From assembly GCA_037129835.1 (NCBI GenBank), contig JBAXUE010000001.1:26085-90084 (forward strand): 64,000 nt of DNA. The letters run 5' to 3'. The notes beneath the pieces were generated by a model. The model searched no databases and had not been told where the DNA came from. It saw only the letters and a list, made by a program, of their open reading frames with translations. Shown piece by piece: positions 6,096 to 31,965 of the stretch (its first letter is position 1; each line of letters begins with the position of its first letter). The DNA is from a bacterium. GTDB taxonomy: Bacteria > Patescibacteriota > CPR2 > UBA1875 > CAIMLA01. A program made the position numbers and the translations under genes.

Positions 6096-6722
6096 TTATT
6101 TCTTCCATTTTTCTTGTGTTCTTTGCACGATACCGCTAATAACAATTTCTTTTAACCAGAAGCTAGGGTAATCACCACCATTGGCTGCTATTACACGATC
6201 GCAATTAGCATTCCATTCTTTTTCGTCCTTACTGCTTTCCATTAGGGCGATGACTGCTTCTGGAGAAGTAAGATCTACTGTAGATTCTTTTTCTGGTATA
6301 TCCATAAGTTCATTTGATTCGTCAAAATATTTATTTTGTTTATCTATCTTCTTGCTCAACTCGTCTTTATTGTAATCTGGGTTTATATAATTTTTATAAT
6401 CACCCTTGCCATCATCTCTAGGTGTAGCGACGGTTTCAGTATGAGTAGAGTGTCCAACTACCACTTTACGGACAATTTGGCTTCCTACAACGAGCCCTGT
6501 GTCAGGATCTATTTCGAGCCCGGCTTCAAGCGCATATATGGGATCGCCTTTTACAATTTCACTTACCAACATGTCTGGAGGATTCTCTTTATTGTTATCA
6601 AATTTATCCAAATGTTGATTTTTTTTATTTTCTGAATTAGTGTAGCCATTCTCATTTGATTCATTTTTCGGAAATTTTTCATTTTTTGAGATATCTGAAG
6701 ATTTATCTCCTCTATTTTCCAT
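6096..6722 (-). CDS. hypothetical protein; paralog of the 38127-38616 gene
   Basis: C-terminus SPEAVIALMESSKDEKEWNANCDRVIAANGGDYPSFWLKEIVI matches the translated 38444-38616 frame (TPASVIALMEGSKNDVEWNANCDKVKAANNGDYPDFWFKEII). Confidence 0.5.
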   Translation of the reverse strand: MENRGDKSSDISKNEKFPKNESNENGYTNSENKKNQHLDKFDNNKENPPDMLVSEIVKGDPIYALEAGLEIDPDTGLVVGSQIVRKVVVGHSTHTETVATPRDDGKGDYKNYINPDYNKDELSKKIDKQNKYFDESNELMDIPEKESTVDLTSPEAVIALMESSKDEKEWNANCDRVIAANGGDYPSFWLKEIVISGIVQRTQEKWKK

Positions 6723-6809
6723 ATGTGCTCCTTTATATTATTAAAATAATTATAACTCTTGGGCTTTGTTATTTCTATGTAGATTTTCTATAAATGATAT
6801 AATATAGGT

Positions 6810-7115
6810 ATGAATAAATCATTGTTACTAAAAACACTTAGAAACACTTTTTTCGCAGCTGCATATATATTCTTGGTTTCGTTGGTGATGCAAAATGGAG
6901 ATCAATGGTTTGGGAATAGCAACATGCTGGCACCATTTGTCATTTTGCTATTATTTTGTTTTTCAGCGGCCACTGTAGGATGTTTGGTATTTGGCCAATC
7001 GATATTTTTATTTTTTGATAATAAAAAGACTGAGAGCGCCAAGGCTGCAATATATAGCATAGGATGGTTTGGAGTTTATACCGTAATTGGTTTATTATTA
7101 TTAATAATTACTTAA
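6810..7115 (+). CDS. small membrane protein
   Basis: 101 aa with three hydrophobic segments. -10-like TATAAT upstream. Confidence 0.4.
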   Translation: MNKSLLLKTLRNTFFAAAYIFLVSLVMQNGDQWFGNSNMLAPFVILLLFCFSAATVGCLVFGQSIFLFFDNKKTESAKAAIYSIGWFGVYTVIGLLLLIIT

Positions 7116-7128
7116 ATAAAGGAGAAAA

Positions 7129-7332
7129 ATGTACGACTATTTAATGAACCCATATGTTATTATTCCTTTAGTGGTTTGGTCCTTAACCTGGAAGGGAATG
7201 GCTCTCTGGAAAGCAGCAAAAAACGACAGCGTTCCGTGGTTCGTTGCTTTATTACTTATTAATACACTTGGTATATTAGAGATATTATATATATATTTCC
7301 CTACAAAAAACACAATACCTAAAGACAAATAA
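7129..7332 (+). CDS. small membrane protein
   Basis: 67 aa and hydrophobic. RBS aaggag 8 nt upstream. Confidence 0.4.
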   Translation: MYDYLMNPYVIIPLVVWSLTWKGMALWKAAKNDSVPWFVALLLINTLGILEILYIYFPTKNTIPKDK

Positions 7333-7416
7333 TATAACGAGAAAGTCATGGTACAGTTAATTATCGGCGGATAATTAATTGTTTGTGCTATAATAAAGCA
7401 AAAGAAAGGGCTAAAT

Positions 7417-9012
7417 ATGAAAAAGTGGCTACCGGTAATTGTACTCTCGCTCGCGTCGTTTGTGATGGTGCTCGATAGCACTGTAATGAATGTGTCTATA
7501 TCCAAGCTTGTTACGGATCTCAATACTTCAGTAGCAGGAATTCAGCTCGCTATTACACTTTTTACTCTAGTGATGGCCTCTTTTATGCTCACAGGCGGCA
7601 AAATGGGTGATATCTGGGGGCGCAGAAAGGCATTTAAAATCGGACTACTGATTTATGGGACTGGTTCGCTAATCACATCTCTTTCTCTTGGTCTACCAAT
7701 GTTGATAGCGGGATGGTCGATTGTGGAGGGTTTGGGCGCAGTACTAGTAATGCCTGCGATAGCGGCACTAACTGCGGCTAATTATCAAGGCAAAGATAGG
7801 GTGGCAGCTTTTAGTATACTCGGCGCAGTTGCCGGAGTTGCAGCAGCAGCAGGCCCTCTTATCGGTGGCGCAGTTACTACTTATCTGTCTTGGCGATATG
7901 TTTTTTCAGCAGAAACCGTAATAGTCTTGATAATATTTTTCGTTTTTGCGAATAAAATAAAGGACGTCCCCGTTACTTCGAAATCTACTTTAGATATACC
8001 AAGCGTAATCTTATCTGCGCTCGGTTTATTTTCTATAGTTTTTGGAATACTCCAGTCTAAGGTCTGGGGGTGGATTACTCCTCTCTCAGCCCCAGTAATA
8101 AATGGGCTGAAAGTTACCCCATTTGGTTTTTCTTTAGTGCCTTTTCTTATCGTTTTTGGGATAGGGATACTTTGGTGGTTTACAGCCAGACAGGAAAAAC
8201 TTAAAAACCAAGGTAAAGATCCGTTGTTAGACATATCAATGTTAAAAATACCCGCTGTTCAAGCAGGGCTTTCAAATATCACTATTCAGTATCTTTTAAC
8301 TGCAGGATTGTTTTTCGTAATGCCAATATACCTTCAAATGGTTCTCGGGTTAGACGCATTGTCTACTGGTATCAAGATATTGCCTATGTCTATCGCGCTT
8401 ATTATAGCATCTCTAGTTGGCGCTAAATTAGTAAGTAAATTTTCTCCTAAGAAAATTATAACTTGGGGTAAAATATTGCTATTGCTCGGTATGTTTACCA
8501 TATTGGCTTCCATCGATCCTGAGCTTAAAAATGGTTATTTAATAGTTGGCATGTTTTTTGTTGGTGGTGGGTTGGGCTTTATGGCATCTCAGATTGGGAA
8601 TGTTATTCTATCTGCTGTGGACGAAGACAAAACTTCGGAAGCAGGGGGACTACAGGGTACTTTTCAGAATTTTGGGTCATCCCTCGGTACCGCACTTATT
8701 GGCTCTGTTCTTATTGCGTCTCTTACCTCTGGTTTCGTTGCCACCGCTACTGGCACTTCAAGCGCGCTTCCAAGCAATGTGAAAACATATATTTCGGAGC
8801 ATACTACAGGTGGAGTAGCCGTTGTTAGTAAAAGTGAGGTTTATCAGTATTCTATAAGTAAGGGGCTAAGTATTTCAGAATCTCAAGAAATATCTGATTA
8901 TTATCTATCGGCACAGATGCAGGCACTGAAGACTTCTATGCTTGCACTTACTCTTTTGGCACTTCTGGGACTTCTATTTTCAAAAAACCTACCAGAAGAA
9001 TTAGTAAAATAG
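7417..9012 (+). CDS. MFS transporter, DHA2 (EmrB/QacA-like, 14-TM) family
   Basis: N-terminal LDSTVMNVSISKL...GGKMGDIWGRRKAF is a typical drug:H+ antiporter signature. 531 aa. Confidence 0.8.
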   Translation: MKKWLPVIVLSLASFVMVLDSTVMNVSISKLVTDLNTSVAGIQLAITLFTLVMASFMLTGGKMGDIWGRRKAFKIGLLIYGTGSLITSLSLGLPMLIAGWSIVEGLGAVLVMPAIAALTAANYQGKDRVAAFSILGAVAGVAAAAGPLIGGAVTTYLSWRYVFSAETVIVLIIFFVFANKIKDVPVTSKSTLDIPSVILSALGLFSIVFGILQSKVWGWITPLSAPVINGLKVTPFGFSLVPFLIVFGIGILWWFTARQEKLKNQGKDPLLDISMLKIPAVQAGLSNITIQYLLTAGLFFVMPIYLQMVLGLDALSTGIKILPMSIALIIASLVGAKLVSKFSPKKIITWGKILLLLGMFTILASIDPELKNGYLIVGMFFVGGGLGFMASQIGNVILSAVDEDKTSEAGGLQGTFQNFGSSLGTALIGSVLIASLTSGFVATATGTSSALPSNVKTYISEHTTGGVAVVSKSEVYQYSISKGLSISESQEISDYYLSAQMQALKTSMLALTLLALLGLLFSKNLPEELVK

Positions 9013-9025
9013 TAAATTTTTGACT

Positions 9026-9688
9026 TTATATAATATATTCAGCCACTATCGGAAGGTGGTCTGAGGCTTTTGATGCAATAGCGTCTGAACTTGTTTTGGA
9101 TAGAATTTTACTTGCAAATATATAGTCGAATTGCTTCCGGGGATTGTTTGCTGGGTACGTTTTGTACTCTCCGGCGAGGTTGTAATATTTCAGTAGGGTT
9201 GATAGTTCAGAAACAGGGCCGTTGAAGTCGCCACAGAAGATAATGGGTGAATATTGTCGTATGTACTCTGTGAGATGTGATATCTGTACGTCTCTATCGA
9301 TTTTTCTAAGCCCCAAGTGGGTAGTCCCAAAATATATATTTCTATTATTAATAAATATTTCTGCTATCGCAATGCCCCTATTTTCTATTCCAGCGATTTT
9401 AGGTAGTTGGATACATTCTGAGGTTTTTATTTCCCCTTTGGTCAAAATAACGTTGCCATACCCGCCAAAAGGTCCATAAGTTACATTGCTTTGGAAAACA
9501 TATTCCATCCCGAGCATTTCTGATAACTTTTTCGGTTGATCTAAAAACGGTGGAATCTGATATACCTCATTTAGACCTACGATATCGGGGTTTTCCTTTG
9601 CTATTGCTTCGGCAATGCTCCTTAGGGAATATATCTTTCCTATTCCCTGGCCATGCCGAATGTTGTAGGACATTACTTTTAACTTCAT
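9026..9688 (-). CDS. endonuclease/exonuclease/phosphatase (EEP) family protein
   Basis: Motifs MSYNIRHG...GLNEV...C-terminal SDHLPIV. Confidence 0.7.
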   Translation of the reverse strand: MKLKVMSYNIRHGQGIGKIYSLRSIAEAIAKENPDIVGLNEVYQIPPFLDQPKKLSEMLGMEYVFQSNVTYGPFGGYGNVILTKGEIKTSECIQLPKIAGIENRGIAIAEIFINNRNIYFGTTHLGLRKIDRDVQISHLTEYIRQYSPIIFCGDFNGPVSELSTLLKYYNLAGEYKTYPANNPRKQFDYIFASKILSKTSSDAIASKASDHLPIVAEYII

Positions 9689-10364: not shown

Positions 10365-10583
10365 ATGTGTTTAGCAACACCAATGCAAATAAAAAGAATA
10401 GAAAAAGAATATGGCTTTCTTGTGCACGGCGGTAAAGAGTATCGTGTAGAGCTTTCACTTATTGATAATCCAAAAGTGGGGGACTGGATTCTTGCTCACG
10501 GTGAGCTTGCAGTTAGTAAAGTGCCTTGCAAAGATGCCAAAGAGATACTAGAATTAATCTCCCAAGCCGGCGTAAACCACTAG
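10365..10583 (+). CDS. hypC: [NiFe] hydrogenase maturation chaperone HypC/HupF
   Basis: N-terminal MCLATPMQI matches the MC(L/I)(A/G)(I/V)P HypC signature. About 72 aa. Confidence 0.8.
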   Translation: MCLATPMQIKRIEKEYGFLVHGGKEYRVELSLIDNPKVGDWILAHGELAVSKVPCKDAKEILELISQAGVNH

Positions 10584-10595
10584 GAGGTGATACGT

Positions 10596-11213
10596 ATGAG
10601 TACGGAAATGACTACAGGAGGCAAGGACGCACTTGTGCGTATCTTGCCAAGTTGTGGTGGTACCATGAGCACAATGTGGCATCTAGCGCGAATGATTCGT
10701 GATAGCAAAAGTATGAATCTCCGAGAAATACTCGGCGGCCTACTCGATCATCCTGATTCGGCGGCGCTAGGGGAACTGGTAGAAACTTGCGAAAAAGTGA
10801 ATGACCTCATCGACATGGAGGGGGTAATAACCCACTTCGCAAGCTACGAACACCTGTCCAAGTTTGACACAGTTACGACAGTCGTCGCAGCTGAGCTTCC
10901 AGAAGAAGAGCAGACAATAGCGCACACACTTTTGCCGTTAACCCTTATACATGGGGGTTACTCATACGAGAATGACGACGTGTATTTGCCTATTTCTGGT
11001 CTTGTACAGATTGGCCCAAGCAACGGGACTCCGTATGCACATCTTGCTAGCGTGATCTGGCTAGAAGACGGTGGCCTGTCAGCTCGAATCATGTCAGAAC
11101 AAGCGGGAAACGGAGTCGTTGAAAGAGCGAGGAAGCTTAGCGGTCTAGACTACGGCAAAGCGCCTAGACTTACAAAGGCAACTATCGCTGCCAAAGAGGC
11201 TCTAAAGATGTAG
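10596..11213 (+). CDS. hypothetical protein (locally high GC, possible acquired gene)
   Basis: Strong SD aggaggtg 6 nt upstream of the ATG at 10596. GC is about 50% against about 36% in the flanks. Followed by an 11-bp GC hairpin. Confidence 0.45.
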   Translation: MSTEMTTGGKDALVRILPSCGGTMSTMWHLARMIRDSKSMNLREILGGLLDHPDSAALGELVETCEKVNDLIDMEGVITHFASYEHLSKFDTVTTVVAAELPEEEQTIAHTLLPLTLIHGGYSYENDDVYLPISGLVQIGPSNGTPYAHLASVIWLEDGGLSARIMSEQAGNGVVERARKLSGLDYGKAPRLTKATIAAKEALKM

Positions 11214-11282: not shown

Positions 11283-12254
11283 TTAATTGGGGATTAGTTC
11301 TAAAATACTGTCAATAACAACTTGTGGTTGGTCAATATGAATATAGTGGTTGCTGTTTGGAACAATGATTTGTTTTCCGTTTTGAGAAATCTTTGAAAGA
11401 TTTTGCTGCCACTCTTTCCAAAAAGGCTCCACGTCAGCACTTCCTTTGGCTGTTAATACTGTTATCGGAATCACGCCAAAATTATTTGTTTTCCTTACTT
11501 CCTCAAAATTAATATTTGAATCGCTTACTTCTTTAGACCCTGCAATAAATTGTTTGGGGGTAACTATACCGGCAAGCAATAGCCTTGTGTCCGTAGGATA
11601 GGCATACATATTGGGGTTTATGGTCATTACTAGACGCACTAGTCCAGTATAAGAAGAAAAAACAAGAAGTTTTATATTTGCTTCGTAGATAATTTTATCA
11701 AGAAATGTAGGTTTGAAGGTGGCCATTTCCGGGACTGAAGAATCAACAAAAACCATTCCCGCAACTTTGGTTTTATTTTTATCCGTATAAAGTCTAATGT
11801 TAAAACCACCAAGCGAGTGACCAACAAGAATATATGGACTGGGGACATTTGCTGCGTTTAACAGGTTTTGTAACTCCTTAGCTACATCTAAATTATTATG
11901 TTTATTGTTTGTAGTGTCACTAAAGCCAATGCCAGCTCTGTCATAAGAGCAGACCTTAGTATACTTTGCTATATTTGGCTGAATTTTATACCAATCATAA
12001 TAATTGCCACCAGCACCTGATTCTAGTATCACGGTCGGCTTGCCATTGTTTTCGCCTGTACAATAAATGTGCATTTTATGACCATTTACATCGACTATTT
12101 GACCAGGAGGAGTAAGAGTTTTTGAATCGATATATTCTGAGACATTCTCGTAAATAAAACCAAACAACATTAAGCCCAAAACAATACATAGTACAATTAG
12201 AGCCACTTTCTTTGCTTTTTGAATAAAGGTCTTCTTGGTCTTCTTTTTGACCAT
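11283..12254 (-). CDS. alpha/beta-hydrolase fold protein, membrane-anchored
   Basis: GHSLGG nucleophile elbow and an N-terminal TM segment. Confidence 0.7.
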   Translation of the reverse strand: MVKKKTKKTFIQKAKKVALIVLCIVLGLMLFGFIYENVSEYIDSKTLTPPGQIVDVNGHKMHIYCTGENNGKPTVILESGAGGNYYDWYKIQPNIAKYTKVCSYDRAGIGFSDTTNNKHNNLDVAKELQNLLNAANVPSPYILVGHSLGGFNIRLYTDKNKTKVAGMVFVDSSVPEMATFKPTFLDKIIYEANIKLLVFSSYTGLVRLVMTINPNMYAYPTDTRLLLAGIVTPKQFIAGSKEVSDSNINFEEVRKTNNFGVIPITVLTAKGSADVEPFWKEWQQNLSKISQNGKQIIVPNSNHYIHIDQPQVVIDSILELIPN

Positions 12255-12257
12255 ATT

Positions 12258-13517
12258 TTAGTGCACCGAACAGGTTATGCAGGGGTCATACGCCCTGATC
12301 AGCATTTCTACCTGTCGATATAGTTCTTTATCATCAAGATTACCGAATTTTTCCATCATTTCATTGGCGTCTTCTTCTAGATTTACCAAACTTTGAACTG
12401 TAGGGGTGACGATGTCGTAATAGGTGATTATCCCGTTTTTATCAATTTTAACAGAGTGATACAAGGTTCCTCTTGGTGCTTCGATAGCCCCTACGCCAGC
12501 GCCAGCCTTTACTTTGAAGGGTACTCTTTTTGATAGTTTTTCATAAGTTATCGCATTTTCTAGATTGTTTATAGCTTCTTCTATGAGATGTACTATTTCT
12601 ATCGCTTGAGCGACATTATTGTGAAAAGAATTATATGTAGGAAGACTCTTGCCCCAGATTTCTCTAAGCGCATAAAGTGCTTTCGGATTTAGATTTTCAT
12701 GGTCGAGAGAAAGTCTGGCAAGAGCACCGACCATAAATCCACGGCCATCTCGTGTGCCATATTTTGTTGGTGAATCTTTCCTTATTTCTTCTTTAAAGGC
12801 GTAACCATAGTTCTCTATAGTAGAGACAAAATCTTGGTTTGATCTAATCTCATTTCCATCGAGATAAGTTAGTTTTCCATCTTTTTGAGTGGCTAGATAC
12901 TCAGTTTTTCTTTTAAGATTTGGATATTTGAAATTCGCAAAAAGCTCAACTGCTTCCATGGCTATTGGTAGAGAATTCTTTAGTTCTGTAATAAGATTCT
13001 TCAGGTCGTCTCTATCTGGCACAGATAAGAAACCTCCAACTACTGGGGCAACGGGATGAACTTCTCTGCCGCCGATACTAGCGACAACTTTATCCCCGAG
13101 TTTCTTCAGTCCTAGTGCAATCTTGTATATTTCAGGTCGTAATTGATGTAGTTCGATCGCGTTCACTACGCCCAAATAGTCGGGAAGTGCTAAGAAAAAA
13201 AGATGCAAAGCGTGAGACTGTATTATTTGCCCCGCCAGGAGAGCTTGTCTCAGACTGTTAATACGATTGTTAGTTTTGATATCAAAAGCCTGCTCGATTG
13301 CTTTAATAGAAACAAGAACATGAGCCGTCGGACAGACTCCGCATATTCTTGCGGTTATAAATGGCGCATCTTCATACGGCCTATCGAGAACAAGTTGCTC
13401 AAATAGTCTTTCGCCTTCATCGATAGTTAGCTTGGCTGAGCCGTTCTTATAATTCAAATTAAGATTACCGTGACCCTCGATCTTACAAATATAGTGTGAT
13501 AAAACAGATTCTTTCAT
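12258..13517 (-). CDS. hydA: [NiFe] hydrogenase large (alpha) subunit, group 3b-like
   Basis: N-terminal RICGVCPTAH and C-terminal DPCITCSVH Ni-Fe ligand motifs. About 419 aa. Confidence 0.9.
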   Translation of the reverse strand: MKESVLSHYICKIEGHGNLNLNYKNGSAKLTIDEGERLFEQLVLDRPYEDAPFITARICGVCPTAHVLVSIKAIEQAFDIKTNNRINSLRQALLAGQIIQSHALHLFFLALPDYLGVVNAIELHQLRPEIYKIALGLKKLGDKVVASIGGREVHPVAPVVGGFLSVPDRDDLKNLITELKNSLPIAMEAVELFANFKYPNLKRKTEYLATQKDGKLTYLDGNEIRSNQDFVSTIENYGYAFKEEIRKDSPTKYGTRDGRGFMVGALARLSLDHENLNPKALYALREIWGKSLPTYNSFHNNVAQAIEIVHLIEEAINNLENAITYEKLSKRVPFKVKAGAGVGAIEAPRGTLYHSVKIDKNGIITYYDIVTPTVQSLVNLEEDANEMMEKFGNLDDKELYRQVEMLIRAYDPCITCSVH

Positions 13518-13593
13518 TATTTTCCTATTGTTTCGTTCCCACTAAAGTGAAAACCATTTTTGATATTTTATTGTTTAATTATATATTGTTTTT

Positions 13594-13623
13594 GATACTT
13601 TTGTCAGTCGATACAAAAGTATC
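13594..13623. repeat. 11-bp perfect inverted repeat (gatacttttgt / acaaaagtatc) in the hydD-hydA intergenic gap
   Basis: Seen directly. Loop is 8 nt (cagtcgat). It lies within the 246-bp gap inside the hydrogenase operon. Confidence 0.4.
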
Positions 13624-13763
13624 CCAAAAATCTTTATTTATGCAGTGACCTGCGGGTCTCTGCAGTGTCTAGTTATCATTATAACTCTTTAAATATTTTT
13701 GCTAGTTAAGGTTCATCCAGTTGGATTTGTGATTTTGGAATATGGTGTGTATGTTAGCGTGGA

Positions 13764-14546
13764 TTATTTTTCCTTTAGATACAATTCTTTGTATTCATTT
13801 TGTTGACTCATAAACGATGCAAAAAGTTGTTCGGTTCGCTTTTTTCCAAATTTTGCTTCTAACATTTTTTTCATAGCTTGCTGGTTGCCACCTTCGAGAG
13901 CACCGAAACAACCCCAGCACCTGAGCCCCTTTGATGGGCAAGCGGCATCACATCCTCCTCTAGTGATGGGGCCGAGACAAGATTCGCCTTCAAGAAGTAG
14001 GCAGGTATTTTCGGCAGCCTTACACTCAAGACAGACCGGGTAGCGCTTATCGTCTGGTCTTTTGTTGATAAGAAACGCTCCTAGGAATCTCTCTAACTCG
14101 ACTGGACTGATAGGACATCCTGGCAATCTGTAGTCGACTTCAATGTAGTAGGAAAGCGGTCTTGGCGGTTTGCTGTTAGTCTTATATTTTGCGCCATACA
14201 CTTTTTCTATACCTTTTTTCCAGCCAGAAATGCCAATACTGCCTTGGATTCCTCCCAGGTCGGCACAGCTGCCCAGGGCAACAATGATTTTAGATGCTAC
14301 TCGGGCCTGTTTGACGGCTTCGATATCGCTTTCAGAAATAGGTGTGCCTTCAATAAAGGTAATATCAAAAGGTCCTGGATTGCTATTGTCGCTAGCAAGA
14401 CGCCAGTTTGCAAACTCTACTTGCCCAGCCAGGCTGGCAAGCTTTTCTCTGAAGCCGATAAACGCAAGTTCGCAGCCTTCGCAATCGGTCATATCGAAGA
14501 TTGCAATTTTGAGTTTTCTATTTAGATAATTCGCCTTTGTTTTCAT
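13764..14546 (-). CDS. hydD: [NiFe] hydrogenase small (delta) subunit
   Basis: DCEGCE proximal-cluster motif, plus C-terminal Cys clusters. Confidence 0.85.
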   Translation of the reverse strand: MKTKANYLNRKLKIAIFDMTDCEGCELAFIGFREKLASLAGQVEFANWRLASDNSNPGPFDITFIEGTPISESDIEAVKQARVASKIIVALGSCADLGGIQGSIGISGWKKGIEKVYGAKYKTNSKPPRPLSYYIEVDYRLPGCPISPVELERFLGAFLINKRPDDKRYPVCLECKAAENTCLLLEGESCLGPITRGGCDAACPSKGLRCWGCFGALEGGNQQAMKKMLEAKFGKKRTEQLFASFMSQQNEYKELYLKEK

Positions 14547-15376
14547 TATAAAAATGCTTCCCAGTTATCTTCTATCTGCGCGAGAGTAAATGTCGGCCCA
14601 TCTGTGCAAACATATAGCTTGCCACAAGTACAGTGTTGGCATTTACCAATCCCACATTTCATTCTTCGCTCAAACATAAGGTTGATATTTTCTTTTTTTA
14701 AGCCTTTTTTGATTAATACATCAGAGGTTGACTGATACATTATAGATGGTCCACAAATAATTACCGTAGCGTCTTTGGTTATTTCTACCTTTTTGACTAT
14801 ATCGGGGATAAATCCAGACAGACCTTGCCACTCTTTATCGGCCTTATCAACGGTAATATAGGTTTCGGCGATTTTATTCATTATGGCAAGTTCTCCCTTG
14901 AATAGGAGGTCGTCAGGGGTTTTTGCGCCATAAATAAATGTGAGTTTGCTTACCATGCTTTGGTTTTCTTTTATCTGGCGTACTATCGACATTAGGGGGG
15001 CTATGCCGATTCCTCCAGCGATTATTACAAGTTCTCTGCCGTAGATTTCCTGAAAACTAATATTATTCCCAAGGGGTCCTTTGATATATGCAGTATCTCC
15101 GATAGAGAGTCGGTTGATCGCAAAAGTATTATTTCCGACGCTTCTGACGGCGATTTCAAATTCTGGAAGTGATGATGGAGAAGTGGTGATAGTCAGCGGG
15201 GATTCCCCAAATCCAGGAATCGACACCATAATAAATTGGCCAGGCACAAAGGTAAAATCTCTACCATCAGCCGTCTCAGTAAACTTAAAGCGAATAGAGC
15301 GAACGCTCGGACTCTGGCCGTTCGTAGAGATAACTTCAACCTTTTTGTACTCTTTACTTTCGTTTGTCATTTTCAA
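14546..15376 (-). CDS. hydG: hydrogenase gamma subunit (FAD/NAD(P)-binding, PyrK-like, 2Fe-2S)
   Basis: Ferredoxin-NADP-reductase-like fold. C-terminal CGIGKCQHCTC 2Fe-2S motif. Confidence 0.8.
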   Translation of the reverse strand: MKMTNESKEYKKVEVISTNGQSPSVRSIRFKFTETADGRDFTFVPGQFIMVSIPGFGESPLTITTSPSSLPEFEIAVRSVGNNTFAINRLSIGDTAYIKGPLGNNISFQEIYGRELVIIAGGIGIAPLMSIVRQIKENQSMVSKLTFIYGAKTPDDLLFKGELAIMNKIAETYITVDKADKEWQGLSGFIPDIVKKVEITKDATVIICGPSIMYQSTSDVLIKKGLKKENINLMFERRMKCGIGKCQHCTCGKLYVCTDGPTFTLAQIEDNWEAFL

Positions 15377-16337
15377 TCAAGCTCTTTAATACTTTTCGAT
15401 AATTTATTCTCGCCGGGCAATATACGATGCATCTACCACAATCTACACAGCCAGGGAAGCCGTATTCACTGGGCATTCTGACGAATTTATGAAAATACCA
15501 ATTGTAGATTCTATCTTTGTGAGTATCCCGAAAATCTTTGAACGGCAAAGCTGCAAAATCCGGTAACATACAAGAATCCCAGCGTCTCTCTCTGCCACCC
15601 TTGATATCGTTTCCAACGTTACCAGTGATGTCGATGCGGTCTTCTTGCTCGTAGCAATAACAAAGCGGGCAAACATAACTACAAATACCGCAATTGAAGC
15701 AAACTTTTGCAAGTTCATCCCATACTTTTGAATTCCTAGATTTTTCGACTATTTCGGCTAATCTAGGATGAAAAAGTACATCATCGGGCATGTGTCTGGT
15801 TGAAATAGTTCCCACATCGCCTTCTTTCCCAAAAAGTGGGTTTCCTTCAATCAACGCTCCACCGTATTCGGTAAATGGATATGCAGACAAGTGCTCGGCA
15901 TCGACTAACTGTAGATATAAATCACAAGTAACGTTATTTGAAGGAGGTAGAGAATCTACTATAATCAGTTTCATATGTTTGCGTCTTTCAATATAGTGCT
16001 CTTCAGGGATTGGATGGTTATAGATTTCGTCCAAATAAAAAATTCCCTCCCCGTCTTTTTTGTTAACACCAAAAACGACAAAGTCTTTGTTTGAAGGGGG
16101 TAAAATTTCACCTTTTTCAAATTTCATCACATCTTCTTTGGCAGGGAAAAGATATTTTTTCGGCGGGATTACCGTTGGTCCGTATATCATAGAGTAATCT
16201 TTGGCACGACGAATTCTACCAAAGCGAAATCTTGTTTTTGTTCCTGTTTTATCCTCTATTGGGCCGTATACGGGCAAATTTTCAGCAATCTCTAGTATAA
16301 ATTTTCCGATATCTTTATTGTGTATTACAAGACTCAT
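15354..16337 (-). CDS. hydB: hydrogenase beta subunit (4Fe-4S)
   Basis: CFNCGICSYVCP and CVDCGRCIVYCP ferredoxin-type motifs. Confidence 0.8.
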   Translation of the reverse strand: MSLVIHNKDIGKFILEIAENLPVYGPIEDKTGTKTRFRFGRIRRAKDYSMIYGPTVIPPKKYLFPAKEDVMKFEKGEILPPSNKDFVVFGVNKKDGEGIFYLDEIYNHPIPEEHYIERRKHMKLIIVDSLPPSNNVTCDLYLQLVDAEHLSAYPFTEYGGALIEGNPLFGKEGDVGTISTRHMPDDVLFHPRLAEIVEKSRNSKVWDELAKVCFNCGICSYVCPLCYCYEQEDRIDITGNVGNDIKGGRERRWDSCMLPDFAALPFKDFRDTHKDRIYNWYFHKFVRMPSEYGFPGCVDCGRCIVYCPARINYRKVLKSLIENDKRK

Positions 16338-16708
16338 AGCGACATGACCTCATCGATGCGTTTTAACAGTTCTTTCATTTCGGTTTCCGACTTGATGATG
16401 AAGTCCTTTGCTCCGTGTTGCAAGGCTTTTTCCTTAATATTGCTATCCGATACCTCAGTTAATATCACGACATTTACAGAGCGGGTATGGTGATCGTTTC
16501 GAATTCTGTCCAGTATATGCAGACCATTGATCTTTGGCATCAGGATATCTAGAAGAACCAAATCAGGTTTTTCTTTATAGATTACATCAAGTGCTTCTTC
16601 CTCGTTACAGATTGCCGTCGCCGAATAACCCGCTGCATTTAATGTATCTTCGTATATTCTACAGACGTCTTTGTTGTTATCTACAATGATGATTCTAGCT
16701 TTTTTCAT
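16334..16708 (-). CDS. stand-alone response-regulator receiver domain (CheY-like)
   Basis: IIIVDN...LLDILMP...KDFIIK motifs. Stop overlaps the hydB start (ATGA). Confidence 0.75.
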   Translation of the reverse strand: MKKARIIIVDNNKDVCRIYEDTLNAAGYSATAICNEEEALDVIYKEKPDLVLLDILMPKINGLHILDRIRNDHHTRSVNVVILTEVSDSNIKEKALQHGAKDFIIKSETEMKELLKRIDEVMSL

Positions 16709-16779: not shown

Positions 16780-16840
16780 TTGACACTCGGTATACCGGAG
16801 TGCTAATATATTTCTAGCACTCATACTTAAAGAGTGCCAA
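16780..16840 (+). promoter_or_regulatory. hrcA promoter (TTGACA-18-TAATAT) overlapping a CIRCE operator with an extra half-site
   Basis: GAGTGCTAA(16798-16806)-tatatttc-cTAGCACTC-atacttaaa-GAGTGCcAA(16832-16840). This matches the CIRCE consensus TTAGCACTC-N9-GAGTGCTAA. Confidence 0.8.
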
Positions 16841-16850
16841 AAGAGGGAAA

Positions 16851-17639
16851 ATGAATCTCAGACAAGAAGCTATTTTAGATGCAATCATTCGTGATTATGT
16901 TGAAACTGCGGAACCCGTAGGTTCTCTGAATCTTGGTGAAAAGTTTGATTTTCCTTTTTCTCCAGCAACAATTCGAGGTGAAATGGCTGAGCTCGAAAAG
17001 CTTGGGTATATTTCACAGCCACATACATCTGCGGGACGTGTTCCAACAGACAAGGGGTATCGGTACTTTGTAAATCTAATGGTCACCCAGACGAAGGCAC
17101 TTGCCAGACAAGATGAGCACGAAATCAAGCACAAGATGCTTGAGCAACACATGCGTTACGAGAAACTTATTGATCTAGCAGCCAAAACTCTAGCCGAAAG
17201 TACTGGCAATGTAGGAATCGTCGGAGTTTCTGGTTTGATATACTCTCATGGACTAGCCAATCTTTTTTCTCAACCAGAGTTTCAGGACTCAGACAATGCG
17301 GTTCGGGCAGCTGAAATACTCGATAGGATGCATGAGCTAGTTGCAGAGATTCCAAATGTCGTGAATCCGATAGTCTTTATCGGTAGCGAATCACCATTTA
17401 GCGCAGCCGCGGGTTGCTCACTAGTGGTTACAGGTTTTGAGACCCCATATAACACCATCGGTAGACTCGCAGTACTCGGACCTACAAGAATGGATTATGA
17501 AAAAGTAATCGCAGTTGTTGAGGAAATAAAGCAAATGCTAGAAGATTGGCAAAATAATAGTAAAGAATTGCCGAAAGTAACGAAGAAAACCACAGTTAAG
17601 AAGTATCGTTTGCAAGCCAAAAACAGAAAGGAGAAATAA
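16851..17639 (+). CDS. hrcA: heat-inducible transcription repressor HrcA
   Basis: N-terminal [26 protein letters not shown] upstream. Confidence 0.9.
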
Positions 17640-27176: not shown

Positions 27177-27258
27177 AGTGGGTTAAAATGTCAACAGTCA
27201 AAGTGACAAACCAGTACATTATACCCTTTTCCCATAAGCTCACCAATCAAATATAATA

Positions 27259-27286
27259 TTGACATAGAGCCAAAAGGGAGTATAAT
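27259..27286 (+). promoter_or_regulatory. near-consensus sigma70 promoter (TTGACA-16-TATAAT) reading into the GC-rich island
   Basis: Seen directly. Followed by imperfect palindromes and a GGGCGG/CCGCCC hairpin before the first island gene. Confidence 0.5.
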
Positions 27287-27462
27287 ACATCACTGTAATA
27301 TCTGTCATAGGCAAATGTTACATACCTTGACAATAGAATAATCAAATAGGTGGTACCTACTGCCGACGGGTCGAACGAATTCATCGATCCATCGGTGGTA
27401 GGTAAGGGGCCTACACTAAAACAGAAGGGCGGGGGACCGCCCAGACAACGAAGGGAGTGGCA

Positions 27463-27837
27463 ATGAAAACCACTCTGTACGTAATCGCCGCGTTCGTCGC
27501 GGTGACAGTTCTGATAGTCGTCCTCATGATGTGGACGACCGGCTTGGAGCTCTTTGGGCTCCAGCTGGGAAAGCACGTGACCAACGCGGAAACGCAGGTC
27601 ATGAGGCAGACCCAGCAGTACAGAACCACCCAGGAGACCAAGTTGGCCGACTGGATGGCGTCGTACGATGACGCCGAGAAGCAGATCGCACTCGTAAAGG
27701 ACGATCCCGAGGCTGTCGCCACTCTCCGTGCCAATCAGGCCGGAATTGTGCGTCAGATGAAGGTATTCGTTTCTAGCGGGCAGATCGCGAAGGAGAACGT
27801 GCCGACAGACGTCCAGGAGTTCCTAGCGTCCCACTAG
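27463..27837 (+). CDS. N-terminally membrane-anchored protein (island gene 1)
   Basis: SD gaagggag 5 nt before the ATG. One TM segment then a polar domain. GC about 55%. Confidence 0.45.
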   Translation: MKTTLYVIAAFVAVTVLIVVLMMWTTGLELFGLQLGKHVTNAETQVMRQTQQYRTTQETKLADWMASYDDAEKQIALVKDDPEAVATLRANQAGIVRQMKVFVSSGQIAKENVPTDVQEFLASH

Positions 27838-27856
27838 TTCCGAAGGAGGAACAAAC

Positions 27857-28459
27857 ATGAAGCGTTTCATTACGCTTGCAATCGTTGTTATGCTGGCGCT
27901 TTCGGCTCTTGCTCTCACCGGTTGTGACGAGCAGGTTGACAATTCGTCCGCCACCACCAAGGAGGCGGCGATAGTCAACTCTCAGGATTCGGTCTATGCC
28001 AAGGGGCAGCCGATTCCGAGGTTCGACTACTCGATTCCGAGAGATCTCTTCACACAGTTCTACAAGTTCCAGACTCAGGAGGGCATCAACACTTACAGTG
28101 TGGTGTCTGACATCAACGGCAACGTGTACTATGAGGGCCCCACGATGGGGTACCCTATTCCGTACAACAGCCAGTTGACCAACCCGGAGAAGACCGAGGT
28201 CCATGAGGGCAACTACAATGGCGGAAACGTCACGTTGCCCCAGAGTGAACCGAACGGTCTCTACACTTCGCCGACAACGAACGCCACAATAGTGATGTTC
28301 ATCGATCCGGCGACCGGTAAGCTGATGCCTGTCTACACTGAGCTCAATGTGACGTGCTTCCCCTTTACGGTGAAGAAAACGGCTACAACGAGCACAGTGT
28401 ACCAGAAGAGCGGGTCTCCGACCGCGCTCCTTGCCCCCAAGGGCAAGACGACCAAGTAG
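27857..28459 (+). CDS. lipoprotein (lipobox LALTGC)
   Basis: MKRFITLAIVVMLALSALALTGCDEQ. SD gaaggagg. Confidence 0.55.
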   Translation: MKRFITLAIVVMLALSALALTGCDEQVDNSSATTKEAAIVNSQDSVYAKGQPIPRFDYSIPRDLFTQFYKFQTQEGINTYSVVSDINGNVYYEGPTMGYPIPYNSQLTNPEKTEVHEGNYNGGNVTLPQSEPNGLYTSPTTNATIVMFIDPATGKLMPVYTELNVTCFPFTVKKTATTSTVYQKSGSPTALLAPKGKTTK

Positions 28460-28636
28460 TTCCCCTATAGGGTAAGACCGTAAGGTCGAACCCTACCACC
28501 ACCATGGGGCTCGGTGCATCATTTGCGCCGGGCCTCAGTTCCTTATTATGTATCTTTGTAGATAGGAGGACACCTACCTCTCCTCCTATCCGCACGGATG
28601 CGGAAAACAAAAAACGATCCCCAGAAAGGGGGCACC

Positions 28637-28780
28637 ATGTTCTGGTTTATCCTGAGCTTGGCCGCTGCAGTATTGTGCGGTTGGACTGGCTATAAGGGTA
28701 AGCTCGCGTATAATTTGTTACTCTCTGGAGCTAACTTTTTTTTCGCGGGCTACCAGCTGGCAGTATTGTTGGCTCGTTAA
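28637..28780 (+). CDS. small hydrophobic peptide (about 47 aa), cassette A
   Basis: MFWFILSLAAAVLCGW...GYQLAVLLAR. SD aaggggg. Preceded by the CCGCACGGATGCGG hairpin. Confidence 0.35.
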   Translation: MFWFILSLAAAVLCGWTGYKGKLAYNLLLSGANFFFAGYQLAVLLAR

Positions 28781-29163
28781 CTGACACCGATTGAGGCCAA
28801 AATAGCCTCAGAAACGGAGGGCCAAATTGCCCTAGTACGGGTCCTATCCGCTCGGACCAAAAAATATAGCGGGTAATGTATCCGATGCATTGAGGTGGTT
28901 TATATCGGAATCGATTTATTAAACCACTAAGGCCACCCTTGAGGTGCGTCTGCTTCGGCAGAGAGTGATACTCCCTCATCGACACAGAGATATGACTACT
29001 AACCCACAAGGTTAGTCTCTGAGAAGAAAAGTCGGGGGTGCGTTTGAGTGATGAGCTCAACCACCCCATTCCTATTATCTATTCGGATTATAGAACAACT
29101 TGTTTTATAACCCGCACGGATGCGGGAACAGACAAAAACACCAAAACCTCGGAGGGAGGTAGT

Positions 29164-29325
29164 ATGTTTAGTCTGCACATGGCTATGATCATGGTTGCTC
29201 TGACTGTTTATCAGTTCAGGAGTGCCATGAAAAGTGGTCGTACCTGGGATTGGTTCTGGGCAGTCTGGAATGCCTTTCTTGTGGGGGTTAACCTCATGTT
29301 GGGTATTTACCAGCTGACCAGGTAG
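29164..29325 (+). CDS. small hydrophobic peptide (about 53 aa), cassette B (paralog of A)
   Basis: MFSLHMAMIMVALTV...GIYQLTR. SD ggagggagg. Preceded by CCCGCACGGATGCGGG and followed by the 62-nt repeat. Confidence 0.35.
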   Translation: MFSLHMAMIMVALTVYQFRSAMKSGRTWDWFWAVWNAFLVGVNLMLGIYQLTR

Positions 29326-29338
29326 CCAAACCTGGTAC

Positions 29339-29400
29339 CCGCCTGTCACTGGGCGGTAGTGAAAGTAGTCGCTGGCTGATGTGGCTACAAAGAATACAGT
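29339..29400 (+). repeat. about 62-nt direct repeat copy 1 (CCGCC-tgtcactg-GGCGG hairpin plus conserved tail)
   Basis: About 90% identical to 29642-29703, including a perfect 27-mer atgtggctacaaagaatacagtgaaaa. Confidence 0.6.
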
Positions 29401-29441
29401 GAAAATGCAAATGTACCTTCATTCACCATTAGGAGGTGGAA

Positions 29442-29636
29442 ATGTACCAAGATAAGAACAACGAGGACATTGATATCACGGCTGAGATAATCAGATTCGT
29501 GGTCTCACTGGGACTCTCGTGGGGTCTTATCTGGGGCGTAGGGCGTATTTTCGGGATTGATTTCTCGTCAATTGCCTACGCGGTCTCGGTAGGTACCCTG
29601 GTAGGGATTACCTACAGCCGTTTACGCCGGAGATAA
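29442..29636 (+). CDS. small membrane peptide (about 64 aa)
   Basis: SD aggaggtgg. Followed immediately by repeat copy 2. Confidence 0.35.
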   Translation: MYQDKNNEDIDITAEIIRFVVSLGLSWGLIWGVGRIFGIDFSSIAYAVSVGTLVGITYSRLRRR

Positions 29637-29641
29637 TTCTC

Positions 29642-29703
29642 CCCGCCTGTCACTGGGCGGTATCGAAAGTAGTTGCTAGCTAATGTGGCTACAAAGAATA
29701 CAG
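29642..29703 (+). repeat. about 62-nt direct repeat copy 2
   Basis: See copy 1. Confidence 0.6.
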
Positions 29704-29877
29704 TGAAAAAGCACATAGCCTGACTTCCTGCTTGATTAATCTTGCAGGGAGTTGGGTTGTTCCATTCTCAATTGCGATTAGTAAGCTGAATATATCTTAT
29801 CTGATATAGACAGCTTACTGGCTGTAAAGTCAGTACCATACCGCCCCAGCGGAAAGCTATCCTCAGTAATGAGAAGA

Positions 29878-29932
29878 GTGAATAGTGAAATATGAAGGCG
29901 ACTAAAAATCGTATTCATATTTCACTATTCAC
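29878..29932. repeat. 19-bp perfect inverted repeat gtgaatagtgaaatatgaa / ttcatatttcactattcac with 17-nt spacer
   Basis: Seen directly. Exact reverse-complement arms. Confidence 0.7.
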
Positions 29933-30351
29933 AATGGGGCCCCACACTACAAGGGGAGAGGGGGGATCCTAACAGAAGGAGTCGCTAGCCAAATAGTCTA
30001 GTATCCGACTCTAGAAGTTAGGGCGCAACCAAGTGTAGTCGTCGTTAGCAGTATTGCGACGTAAAATATTCTTCTGCAAATGCCCCCGACGGGGCACAAG
30101 CGGTTTTTACACCACCGCTTAATCAAAAAGTGTAGCGTGGTACGCTACCACGATAAATACATGCTAAGCCCAGCGTTCCTGATTTGGGGGCGCTTGGCCT
30201 TTCCTTGTCACCAGCAAAGCGTTTCCATATATTGTTCGAGATTTGTCGAGAACTACAGTTCATGAATAAATAAGAAACTTTATAAGGGGATACCTTGCTG
30301 CTAACAAGCAGAAGGAAAGCAGGCCAAAATAGCCTGTGATTACGATTCACC

Positions 30352-30591
30352 ATGGAGAGGTGGTGTAGGGAGATGGAACGACTTAGGGATCAGATCTTGA
30401 TCGTGATGATAGGAGTGTATTTCCTCATTGTGATCACTCTGATCGCTAGCGCGGCCGTATTTGTAGCCCAGCTGATGCTGGGGGCAGGTATCTCGATCTT
30501 CTTGATCGTACCGGCCTGTATTTTGACCGGCCTCATGGCGACGGTAATTTTCGTCGCCCTGGTGGTCCTGGTTGATCATATCCACAGTTAG
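30352..30591 (+). CDS. small 2-TM membrane protein
   Basis: Hydrophobic, 79 aa. The long antisense ORF 30340..30951 was rejected. Confidence 0.35.
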   Translation: MERWCREMERLRDQILIVMIGVYFLIVITLIASAAVFVAQLMLGAGISIFLIVPACILTGLMATVIFVALVVLVDHIHS

Positions 30592-30636
30592 GACAGTGGT
30601 CAACCACACGATCAACCTCTGGAAGGAGGTGAACAA

Positions 30637-30819
30637 ATGCCGCTTTGGTTCCATATTGGGGGGGTCATTCTCCTCGAGTTGGCGATCATCGGTATCCCGA
30701 GCATGTTGTTTGGGATGTCGATGGCGCAGGGAAATCGCAATGAACAGATCCTCATTGGATCTCTCGTCGTGATTGGGGCGCTTCTGTCCCCGTTTGTTTT
30801 TGCCATTATGATGGCTTAG
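30637..30819 (+). CDS. small 2-TM membrane protein
   Basis: SD aaggaggtg 5 nt upstream. 60 aa. Confidence 0.4.
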   Translation: MPLWFHIGGVILLELAIIGIPSMLFGMSMAQGNRNEQILIGSLVVIGALLSPFVFAIMMA

Positions 30820-31245
30820 GCGAACGCGCCCTGAGGGCTGGTAACTCCCAGCCATTGGCAACAAAGGAGAGGCATGGACAATAGTCCTAGTTCTCTCAGA
30901 GTGCCAGCGAAACAACGCTGGAATCGTGAGGTGTGCACTCATGAGAAACAAATAATTATTGAGGGCCCAAGTACCGTTGTGAAACGGGATGCGGGCCTTT
31001 TCGCTTATTAGAAGTATAGAGTATTTTGGATAGTATTGTTTTGAAGATCAAATTTAATGAAACCCGATACCTACAACGTAGTTATGGTTCAACTTGTTGA
31101 AGAAATTCAAAATAGAACAGGCTAAAGTTGATACCTCGCCAGCGTTATCACAAGTTTTTTTGTGCTTGAATACATTGACAAATAAGTATAAATACGTTAA
31201 AATAAATAATTGTTTTGGGTATAAAAATCTGGATATTCTCTAGAT

Positions 31246-31965
31246 TTGTGTTCCCAATACAGGGAACAAGTATGCCTCGGAAGGAGGCTGATAGTTGTGT
31301 TTGGTGACACAAACTTGGTAGTCGACGGAACTCTTGTACTGGTAGTCATCTTTAGCTTGGTCGCCATAGCTTTTTCACACCGACGTAGTTATCTTTTGAA
31401 GGCAGAAGTTACCAGGTTGGCAACGGAGGTCTTGCGGATAGGGGCAGACAGAGACAATCATCAAGAGCTGTCTTTGATCGATCCACTAACCGAGGTGGCA
31501 AACAGAAGAGCGATTGGCCTGTATTTGCAGTATGACATGGAGCGCATGTCACGCTATCCTGGGGAATATTCGCTCATGTTTGTAGATATTGATCGCTTCA
31601 AAGCAGTCAATGATACTCGTGGGCATGCTCTCGGGGATGAGATCCTTCTGGCAGTCGCCAAGTCTCTCGAGCTCACCTTTCGCGAAAGTGATACGGTGGG
31701 GCGTTACGGCGGCGATGAATTTGTTGTATTGCTGCCAAATGCAGATCTGTTCGCTTCTAAGGCAAGAGCTGAAGACGCACTAAAAGCAGTTCGCGACATC
31801 GGCGAGGTTTATGACCTCGATATATCCCTGTCTATAGGCATAGTGACTGTGATAGGTGGTCAAGAGATTACTCTCAAAGCACTGTTAGACGCTGCAGACA
31901 AGGGCCTATATTGTGCCAAGAACAAAGGAGGCAACTGCTGGTCGAGAGGATTTGTAGAACTCTAA
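31246..31965 (+). CDS. GGDEF-domain diguanylate cyclase with N-terminal TM segment
   Basis: RYGGDEFVVLL, DPLTEVANRRA, DIDRFKAVND. The likely true start is a GTG/TTG near 31294 after SD ggaagg. Confidence 0.8.
   Translation: MCSQYREQVCLGRRLIVVFGDTNLVVDGTLVLVVIFSLVAIAFSHRRSYLLKAEVTRLATEVLRIGADRDNHQELSLIDPLTEVANRRAIGLYLQYDMERMSRYPGEYSLMFVDIDRFKAVNDTRGHALGDEILLAVAKSLELTFRESDTVGRYGGDEFVVLLPNADLFASKARAEDALKAVRDIGEVYDLDISLSIGIVTVIGGQEITLKALLDAADKGLYCAKNKGGNCWSRGFVEL

Follow-up and report, generated by a model that had tools for sequence, protein, structure and literature searches.

The 64,000-nucleotide (nt) stretch of DNA analysed here, referred to throughout as the window, contains on its minus strand (16708..12258) a hyd operon in which the gene of a stand-alone receiver protein precedes, and overlaps, the first of the four hydrogenase genes hydB, hydG, hydD, and hydA. 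The encoded enzyme is securely assigned to the cytosolic NAD(P)-linked group 3b [NiFe]-hydrogenases (HydBGDA), in the 'hyd1' type of the Candidate Phyla Radiation (CPR). The linkage of receiver and hydB recurs among related loci, and we tentatively suggest that the orphan receiver docks on the beta/gamma module of the enzyme, where phosphorylation of residue D54 would modulate electron flow or assembly; we regard this as quite possible, if somewhat short of probable.

Organization of the operon

The operon comprises the following parts (protein lengths in amino acids, aa):

16334..16708, minus strand: receiver (REC-B type), 124 aa; PF00072, 88.9 bits, E 3e-25
15354..16337, minus strand: hydB, beta subunit, AsrA-like, two 4Fe-4S motifs, 327 aa; Fer4_22, 87.8 bits; NCBIfam ShyB/HydB
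14546..15370, minus strand: hydG, gamma subunit, AsrB-like, FAD and NAD(P) binding; Pfam NAD_binding_1, FAD_binding_6, and DHODB_Fe-S_bind (2Fe-2S)
13764..14546, minus strand: hydD, delta (small) subunit, 260 aa; Oxidored_q6
13518..13763, minus strand: spacer between hydD and hydA, 246 nt, non-coding (read from the sequence)
12258..13517, minus strand: hydA, [NiFe] large subunit (alpha), 419 aa; NiFeSe_Hases

The gene order receiver-hydB-hydG-hydD-hydA corresponds to beta-gamma-delta-alpha headed by the receiver. As read from the sequence, the receiver stop and the hydB start have the letters ATGA in common, and hydG and hydD overlap in TAATG. The start of hydG is placed at ATG 15370, with TTG 15376 as an alternative; the gene call on the identical contig L001 (L-numbers denote related loci) uses ATG. 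An arrangement by chance is ruled out because of the domain E-values and the conservation across dozens of metagenomic relatives. A preliminary description of the window had proposed the five-gene operon at 12258-16708 and an ATGA coupling of an output-less receiver to hydB; open reading frames (ORFs) with the confirmed domains are indeed located exactly there on the minus strand, the overlap reads as described, and the receiver has no second domain. The 246-nt gap between hydD and hydA, the end of HydA, the loss of cysteines in HydB, and the gene after hypC, all treated below, are details beyond that description. Public NCBI records (MEI6266308 to MEI6266318) match the window proteins exactly, under generic annotations such as 'response regulator', '4Fe-4S dicluster domain-containing protein', and 'Ni/Fe hydrogenase subunit alpha', and the nearest named homologs are found in Patescibacteria.

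The receiver protein

The PF00072 match of the receiver exceeds the cut-off of 30.2 bits and spans residues 6-118 of 124, with no other domain present. The protein is an exact match to NCBI MEI6266315.1 ('response regulator') and is unchanged across the NCBI, JGI, ENA, and Logan assemblies. Among 5.8 billion proteins searched, its orthologs form about 26 clusters at 45% identity or above, all of them 121-126 aa long; below 45% there is a gap, and the next homologs follow at 39% identity. Of the five positions involved in phosphorylation, four (D10, D54, T84, and K106) are present and conserved in the alignments, the second acidic position being N11, and a clade-specific 'KSE' is situated after beta-strand 5 instead of the usual 'KP'. 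Judged by its sequence, the receiver is a genuine stand-alone single-domain response regulator. It is similar to CheY, DivK, CpdR, and Spo0F in the PF00072 domain, in the phospho-acceptor Asp together with Thr and Lys, and in lacking an output domain, whereas it differs from them in constituting the first cistron of a metabolic enzyme operon, in a D-N pair in place of two acidic residues, and in the 'KSE' motif.

The preliminary description had named a frameshift as a possible objection, such that the receiver ORF would be the N-terminus of a larger regulator. This is excluded for all practical purposes by the uniform length of the orthologs and by the receiver stop, which overlaps the ATG of hydB and is situated at the hydB start in all 19 loci measured; moreover, hydB aligns with its orthologs from Met1 (MSL...), the same protein is present in the four assembly sources, and nothing in favour of a frameshift was found.

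The receiver is under strong purifying selection. Between the window and a relative with 97% identity in HydB, the receiver has a ratio of nonsynonymous to synonymous substitution rates (dN/dS) of 0.064, compared with 0.029 in HydB, and at greater distances the dN of the receiver roughly equals that of HydB. These values, together with a reading frame, residues D54, T84, and K106, and a coupling to hydB that are intact across many lineages, make it very unlikely that the receiver is a non-functional vestige remaining after the loss of its kinase, even if no kinase and no copy of REC-A, the second receiver of many relatives, adjoin it in the window, its acidic pair is reduced to D-N, and receivers have repeatedly been lost in sister lineages.

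Linkage of receiver and hydB among related loci

Whether the linkage is kept in related genomes, as the preliminary description had asked, could be followed in 29 close-clade loci with enough upstream sequence: the receiver is situated directly upstream of hydB in 20 of them and is absent from the other nine. In all loci in which the junction was measured (19/19), the stop codon of the receiver and the ATG of hydB either overlap (as ATGA in five, as TAATG in nine) or are separated by 1-3 nt. The neighbour upstream of the receiver varies, being either the divergent hrcA-grpE-dnaK-dnaJ group or hypC followed by U208, a gene described below (in L086-L092 and L139, hypC-U208 directly precedes REC-REC-hydBGDA, REC denoting receiver genes), and the receiver remains with hydB in either case. 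A linkage to hrcA instead of hydB was considered and rejected, as the receiver still accompanies hydB when hrcA is located elsewhere.

In the HydB tree, the receiver-bearing loci constitute one large clade with several receiver-less branches, which marks the receiver as a dispensable accessory. Two tandem receivers, REC-A and REC-B, precede hydBGDA in most relatives, whereas the window contains REC-B only. REC-A is divergent, with E-S-D instead of D-D and with the Lys often lost.

Associated kinases and fusions

A complete two-component set is found in the CPR locus L107, which has the same junction of receiver and hydB and the order hrcA (opposite strand), REC-A, kinase, REC-B, hydB, followed by the remaining hydrogenase genes. 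In the kinase of 557 aa, PAS, HisKA, and HATPase_c domains come after a polytopic membrane domain. In L113, a C-terminal kinase fragment is situated directly upstream of REC-B. The L107 cluster shows what partners these receivers, irrespective of whether the kinase is ancestral and was lost later or was gained in the L107 branch.

Concerning other phyla, 80 group 3b loci were sampled among the matches listed in a scan of species-representative genomes with a HydA alignment; they come from many phyla and lie nearly all outside the clade of the window. Within 800 base pairs (bp) of these operons, receiver domains are 3.7 times denser than in the distal flanks, and each of the 13 has the orientation of the operon (rough binomial p of about 8e-5). 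These receivers form a subfamily of their own with the motif YLPVDAFIxKP and either precede hydB or follow hydA; in 12 of the loci, a neighbouring kinase (GAF or 6TM type) is encoded on the same strand as well. A receiver beside the beta subunit recurs in CPR, Chloroflexota, Planctomycetota, and Actinomycetota.

In two metagenome-assembled genomes (MAGs), the receiver and the beta subunit are fused:

L041 (Dehalococcoidia MAG), 6889-9237, plus strand: in-frame REC-HydB-HydG, one polypeptide of 783 aa, colinear with the receiver and HydB of the window
L024 (Anaerolineae MAG), 6144-8381, plus strand: REC-HisKA-HATPase-HydB in one ORF

By the gene-fusion argument, these fusions support a physical partnership of receiver and beta subunit.

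The main rival explanation takes the receiver for an ordinary signalling intermediate or phosphate sink whose target lies elsewhere (another protein, the pilus, or second-messenger enzymes), such that the operon provides co-expression only. We consider this a serious possibility, although a rather unlikely one. Single-domain receivers such as CheY, DivK, and Spo0F are known to act commonly on distant partners, nine sister loci do without the receiver, and a GGDEF protein as well as type IV pilus genes are located in the same window. Furthermore, the next-closest receivers (the homologs at 39% identity, e.g., in L140) sit in clusters of a histidine kinase and two receivers in CPR genomes without a hydrogenase there, from which it follows that the module goes back to a general CPR signalling cassette. 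Co-expression, however, leaves unexplained why stop and start codons remain coupled in each of the 19 loci measured over a divergence of more than 50% in HydB, why in-frame fusions of receiver and HydB occur in two MAGs of other phyla, and why receivers are enriched on the same strand beside group 3b operons.

Proposed mode of action

In the reading we prefer, that of docking on the enzyme, the receiver would belong to a two-component module dedicated to the hydrogenase, which by comparison appears complete in L107. Since the lineage of the window has REC-B only, its receiver would be an orphan. REC-B would be translated together with HydB and, as it possesses no DNA-binding output, probably acts after translation, most plausibly by docking on the diaphorase-like beta/gamma module; the phosphorylation state of D54 would then tune the flow of electrons between NAD(P)H and H2, or else assembly, with an unlinked kinase or a small donor such as acetyl phosphate as the presumed source of the phosphate. 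The loss of the receiver in sister lineages means that it would be a modulator and not an essential subunit. Phosphorylation-dependent control or docking had already been suggested in the preliminary description; the L107 kinase and the two MAG fusions lend this suggestion comparative support, short of proof.

Several observations weigh against such a role. The second acidic residue of the receiver is N11 in the subclade of the window (an Asp is found in L003, L095, L107, L110, and L113), and the D10-N11 pair may impair phosphorylation. Nine close relatives have no receiver, and the enzyme therefore works without it. No histidine kinase was found in the 64-kb window, either by Pfam on 40 ORFs or by a kinase-core search in all ORFs of at least 50 aa, and a 7.5-kb contig reached from the ends of the window contains neither a kinase nor hyp genes. 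The window receiver matches REC-B of L107 with 108 bits, compared with 91 bits for a receiver that is not linked to a hydrogenase, such that the presumed orthology with REC-B of L107 rests on position and a small score margin. As tandem stand-alone receivers beside a kinase also exist in hydrogenase-free CPR genomes (L140), this architecture is not specific to hydrogenases. Concerning the fusions, each comes from a single MAG and could be an assembly artefact, and the fused receiver of L041 is atypical, with an E-S-D acidic triad and Ala in place of Thr.

Few H2 enzymes of anoxic environments are as widespread as the group 3b hydrogenases, which have been proposed as the main redox valve of fermentative CPR bacteria. 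To our knowledge, descriptions of their control concern transcription only. The recurrence of the receiver, its occasional fusion, and its frequent own kinase point to a direct control of electron flow by reversible phosphorylation.

A two-component pathway tied to a [NiFe]-hydrogenase is likewise found in the H2-sensing systems of Cupriavidus and Rhodobacter (HoxBC/HupUV, HoxJ/HupT, HoxA/HupR). Those systems possess a separate group 2b sensor hydrogenase and a DNA-binding NtrC-type regulator, whereas the window has neither (Pfam scans revealed no second hydrogenase and no sigma-54 or helix-turn-helix domain in it), and here the receiver is coupled to the catalytic beta subunit, to which it is fused in other phyla.

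In the literature, nothing was found on receivers or kinases beside group 3b hydrogenases, on U208, or on HypC-radical-SAM fusions, and a search in the text of PMC7304191 and of PMC10811913 revealed neither a receiver nor a kinase, a partner gene of hypC, or a missing C-terminal extension. The papers searched do not describe the receiver linkage, the kinase-bearing relatives, the recurrence across phyla, or the fusions.

Assignment of the hydrogenase

The assignment to group 3b is secure because of the scores of the subunits and the beta-gamma-delta-alpha order. Among the NCBIfam models, HydA reaches about 272 bits with ShyA/HydA, compared with 168 for VhuA, 134 for FrhA, and 15 for NuoD. Among the PDB chains, it reaches 251 bits with the alpha subunit of sulfhydrogenase I, compared with 163 for Mvh (group 3c), 92-146 for F420-reducing/Frh enzymes (3a), 118 for the NAD-reducing soluble hydrogenase (3d), and at most 102 for group 1. 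Models of the Pyrococcus/Thermococcus sulfhydrogenase are among the best NCBIfam matches of every subunit and take first place for alpha, beta, and delta; of the solved structures, the corresponding chain of sulfhydrogenase I is the best match of each subunit (HydB to 9nez_B, the beta chain, 108 bits; HydG to 9nez_C, 184 bits; HydD to 9e15_A, the delta chain, 164 bits). The class, the hydBGDA order as in the Pyrococcus sulfhydrogenase, and the signature cysteine motifs given in the preliminary description are all borne out, the first by the HydA scores, the second by the agreement of order and chain matches, and the third by the alignments of HydA, HydB, HydG, and HydD. The other objection named there, a large subunit placed outside group 3, does not hold either.

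Concerning these motifs, HydA contains RICGVCPTAH at residues 57-66 and DPCITCSVH at residues 411-419, both without variation in 13 clade members. Cysteines of Pyrococcus sulfhydrogenase I stand opposite the two CxxCxxCxxxCP motifs of HydB and the 2Fe-2S cysteines of HydG in the alignments, and in HydD all 12 cysteines align (12/12), which is enough for three clusters.

Sulfhydrogenase I of Pyrococcus furiosus (9nez, 9e15) and the cytosolic [NiFe]-hydrogenase of Thermococcus kodakarensis (5yxy), both of group 3b and with the same gene order, are the best solved relatives of the enzyme. Shared with them are the cysteine ligands at the active site, the delta clusters, the 2Fe-2S cluster of gamma, and the two ferredoxin-like clusters of beta. 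Despite this similarity, identity is modest and the scores remain far under the NCBIfam equivalog cut-offs, and there are three differences: the window has a receiver gene before hydB, its HydA lacks the C-terminal tetrapeptide, and its HydB lacks three of the four N-terminal cysteines. HydA ends in ...DPCITC[SA]VH, i.e., at His419 of DPCxxCxxH, equally in 12 sampled clade members, whereas Pyrococcus HydA extends four residues beyond that His in the PDB alignment; without a C-terminal extension, no maturation endopeptidase would be needed. In HydB, the missing cysteines (residues about 88-140; HAC...SC...YCFC in Pyrococcus) are replaced, and the beta subunit of the clade may therefore have one iron-sulfur cluster fewer.

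The CPR 'hyd1' clade of group 3b enzymes was described by Jaffe et al. 2020 (PMC7304191), whose published CPR tree places a clade of such architecture in group 3b; CPR group 3b enzymes are also discussed by Valentin-Alvarado et al. 2024 (PMC10811913). The window likewise has a full-length small subunit, the beta and gamma subunits, and a hypC gene nearby. It fits the published clade, and the hydrogenase itself is therefore already known.

Maturation genes

At lower window coordinates than the hydrolase and hydrogenase genes, two genes on the plus strand are situated next to each other:

10365..10583, plus strand: hypC, 72 aa, beginning with MCLATP...; PF01455 59 bits; TIGR00074 51.6 bits (cut-off 48)
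10587..11213, plus strand: U208, of a family and fold without a known match, following hypC; likely start at ATG 10596, giving 205 aa

Neither hypA, hypB, hypD, hypE, or hypF nor a maturation protease was found in the window by Pfam on 40 ORFs and a six-frame motif scan, such that the statement of the preliminary description that only hypC is nearby holds for the window. Of the 80 genome-scan loci among the matches listed, 17 (one of them in Saccharibacteria) have canonical motifs of hypD/hypE next to the operon, compared with only one of 58 loci of the CPR set.

U208 has no sequence match in Pfam, NCBIfam, or PDB, and among 1.84 billion proteins no more than 21 representatives of its family are found. 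Residues C23, H89, E103, H113, and H152 are conserved. A first AlphaFold2 model, built with nine sequences only, had a predicted local distance difference test (pLDDT) value of 60; once distant members were added, the model reached a pLDDT of 96 and a predicted template modelling score (pTM) of 0.92, and it has no Foldseek match in PDB. Members of the family with 25-28% identity still adjoin hypC and/or a group 3b hydrogenase. U208 is found in the window, L002, L086-L092, L097, L134, L135, L137, and L139, always after hypC, and in several of these loci it heads the hydrogenase operon. Accordingly placed, and metal-binding in appearance, it constitutes a candidate hydrogenase maturation factor.

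Sister CPR lineages possess hypC and, besides it, a fusion of 424 aa of HypC with a HydE-like radical-SAM protein (CRNNCLYCGIRKD):

L003, 10052-11326, minus strand: HypC::radical-SAM fusion
L004, 9257-10531, minus strand: HypC::radical-SAM fusion

The fusion also occurs in L095, L096, and L099. It scores 276.6 bits against a cut-off of 254.6 for the NCBIfam equivalog of the [FeFe]-hydrogenase protein HydE, yet is situated beside a [NiFe]-hydrogenase. U208 was considered as a fragment of this fusion and rejected, as there is no cross-hit between the two.

A more far-reaching reading, which we consider improbable, combines both subjects: the receiver would be a phosphorylation-switched fifth subunit, and at the same time the clade would mature its enzyme by a reduced route consisting of HypC and U208 (in sister lineages the HypC::HydE-like radical-SAM fusion), without a protease and possibly without HypD, HypE, and HypF. 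If true, the fifth-subunit receiver would be the first two-component signal that acts directly on a hydrogenase and not on its transcription. The partner of hypC, which is always either the metal-binding-looking U208 or the radical-SAM fusion, bears on the building of the NiFe(CN)2CO cofactor in genome-reduced bacteria and may matter in this respect.

Regulatory elements

The operon begins next to a divergent group of heat-shock genes, with which it has a region of 142 bp in common:

16851..17639, divergent from receiver-hyd: hrcA, heading hrcA-grpE-dnaK-dnaJ
16780..16840: two tandem inverted repeats, similar to the controlling inverted repeat of chaperone expression (CIRCE), TTGGCACTC-N9-GAGTGCTAG and TTAGCACTC-N9-GAGTGTCAA

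The label CIRCE-like follows a comparison of the repeats with the established CIRCE consensus. The region holding them serves the divergent promoters of both hrcA and receiver-hyd. Since the divergent synteny of hrcA and hyd is kept in many CPR relatives, shared heat-shock control is possible.

This arrangement bears on a further explanation, according to which the receiver controls the transcription of hyd or of the divergent hrcA-dnaK genes indirectly, via a DNA-binding partner or RNA polymerase, as part of an autoregulated circuit. The known HoxJ/HoxA and HupT/HupR systems act on transcription, the hyd promoter lies in the same 142 bp as that of hrcA and the two CIRCE-like sites, and an NtrC-type regulator adjoins the group 3b operon of L041. 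Nevertheless, we regard this as unlikely: a DNA-binding domain is lacking in the receiver as well as in its approximately 26 ortholog clusters, the receiver remains with hydB where hrcA is not adjacent, and no partner was identified.

Within the operon, the spacer between hydD and hydA, which is unusually long, contains two overlapping elements:

13594-13623: perfect hairpin with an 11-bp stem, GATACTTTTGT-N8-ACAAAAGTATC
13607-13578, minus strand: promoter-like site CTGACA-18-TATAAT, near-consensus, the best sigma-70-like site of the region in a promoter scan

A block of about 45 nt that includes both is 100% identical in L002, whereas its flanks have diverged. The hairpin occurs once in the window and otherwise only in L001 and L002; the z-score of the RNA fold is -4.9. 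Where hydD and hydA of relatives abut, the element is absent.

Neighbouring sequences

A gene of an alpha/beta-hydrolase (11283-12254, minus strand) follows hydA in the same orientation, its start being 3 nt past the hydA stop. The identical contig L001 contains it as well, whereas L002-L004 do not, and it is therefore probably a lineage-specific passenger.

An Rfam search of the window yielded three tRNAs only, with no match in the hyd region or in an island at 27-31 kb. The latter (27200-31000) has a G+C content of 0.44-0.49, compared with about 0.39 elsewhere, and contains only short, oddly composed ORFs. The GGDEF protein mentioned above, which is small, is encoded after this G+C-rich stretch, at 31246-31965.

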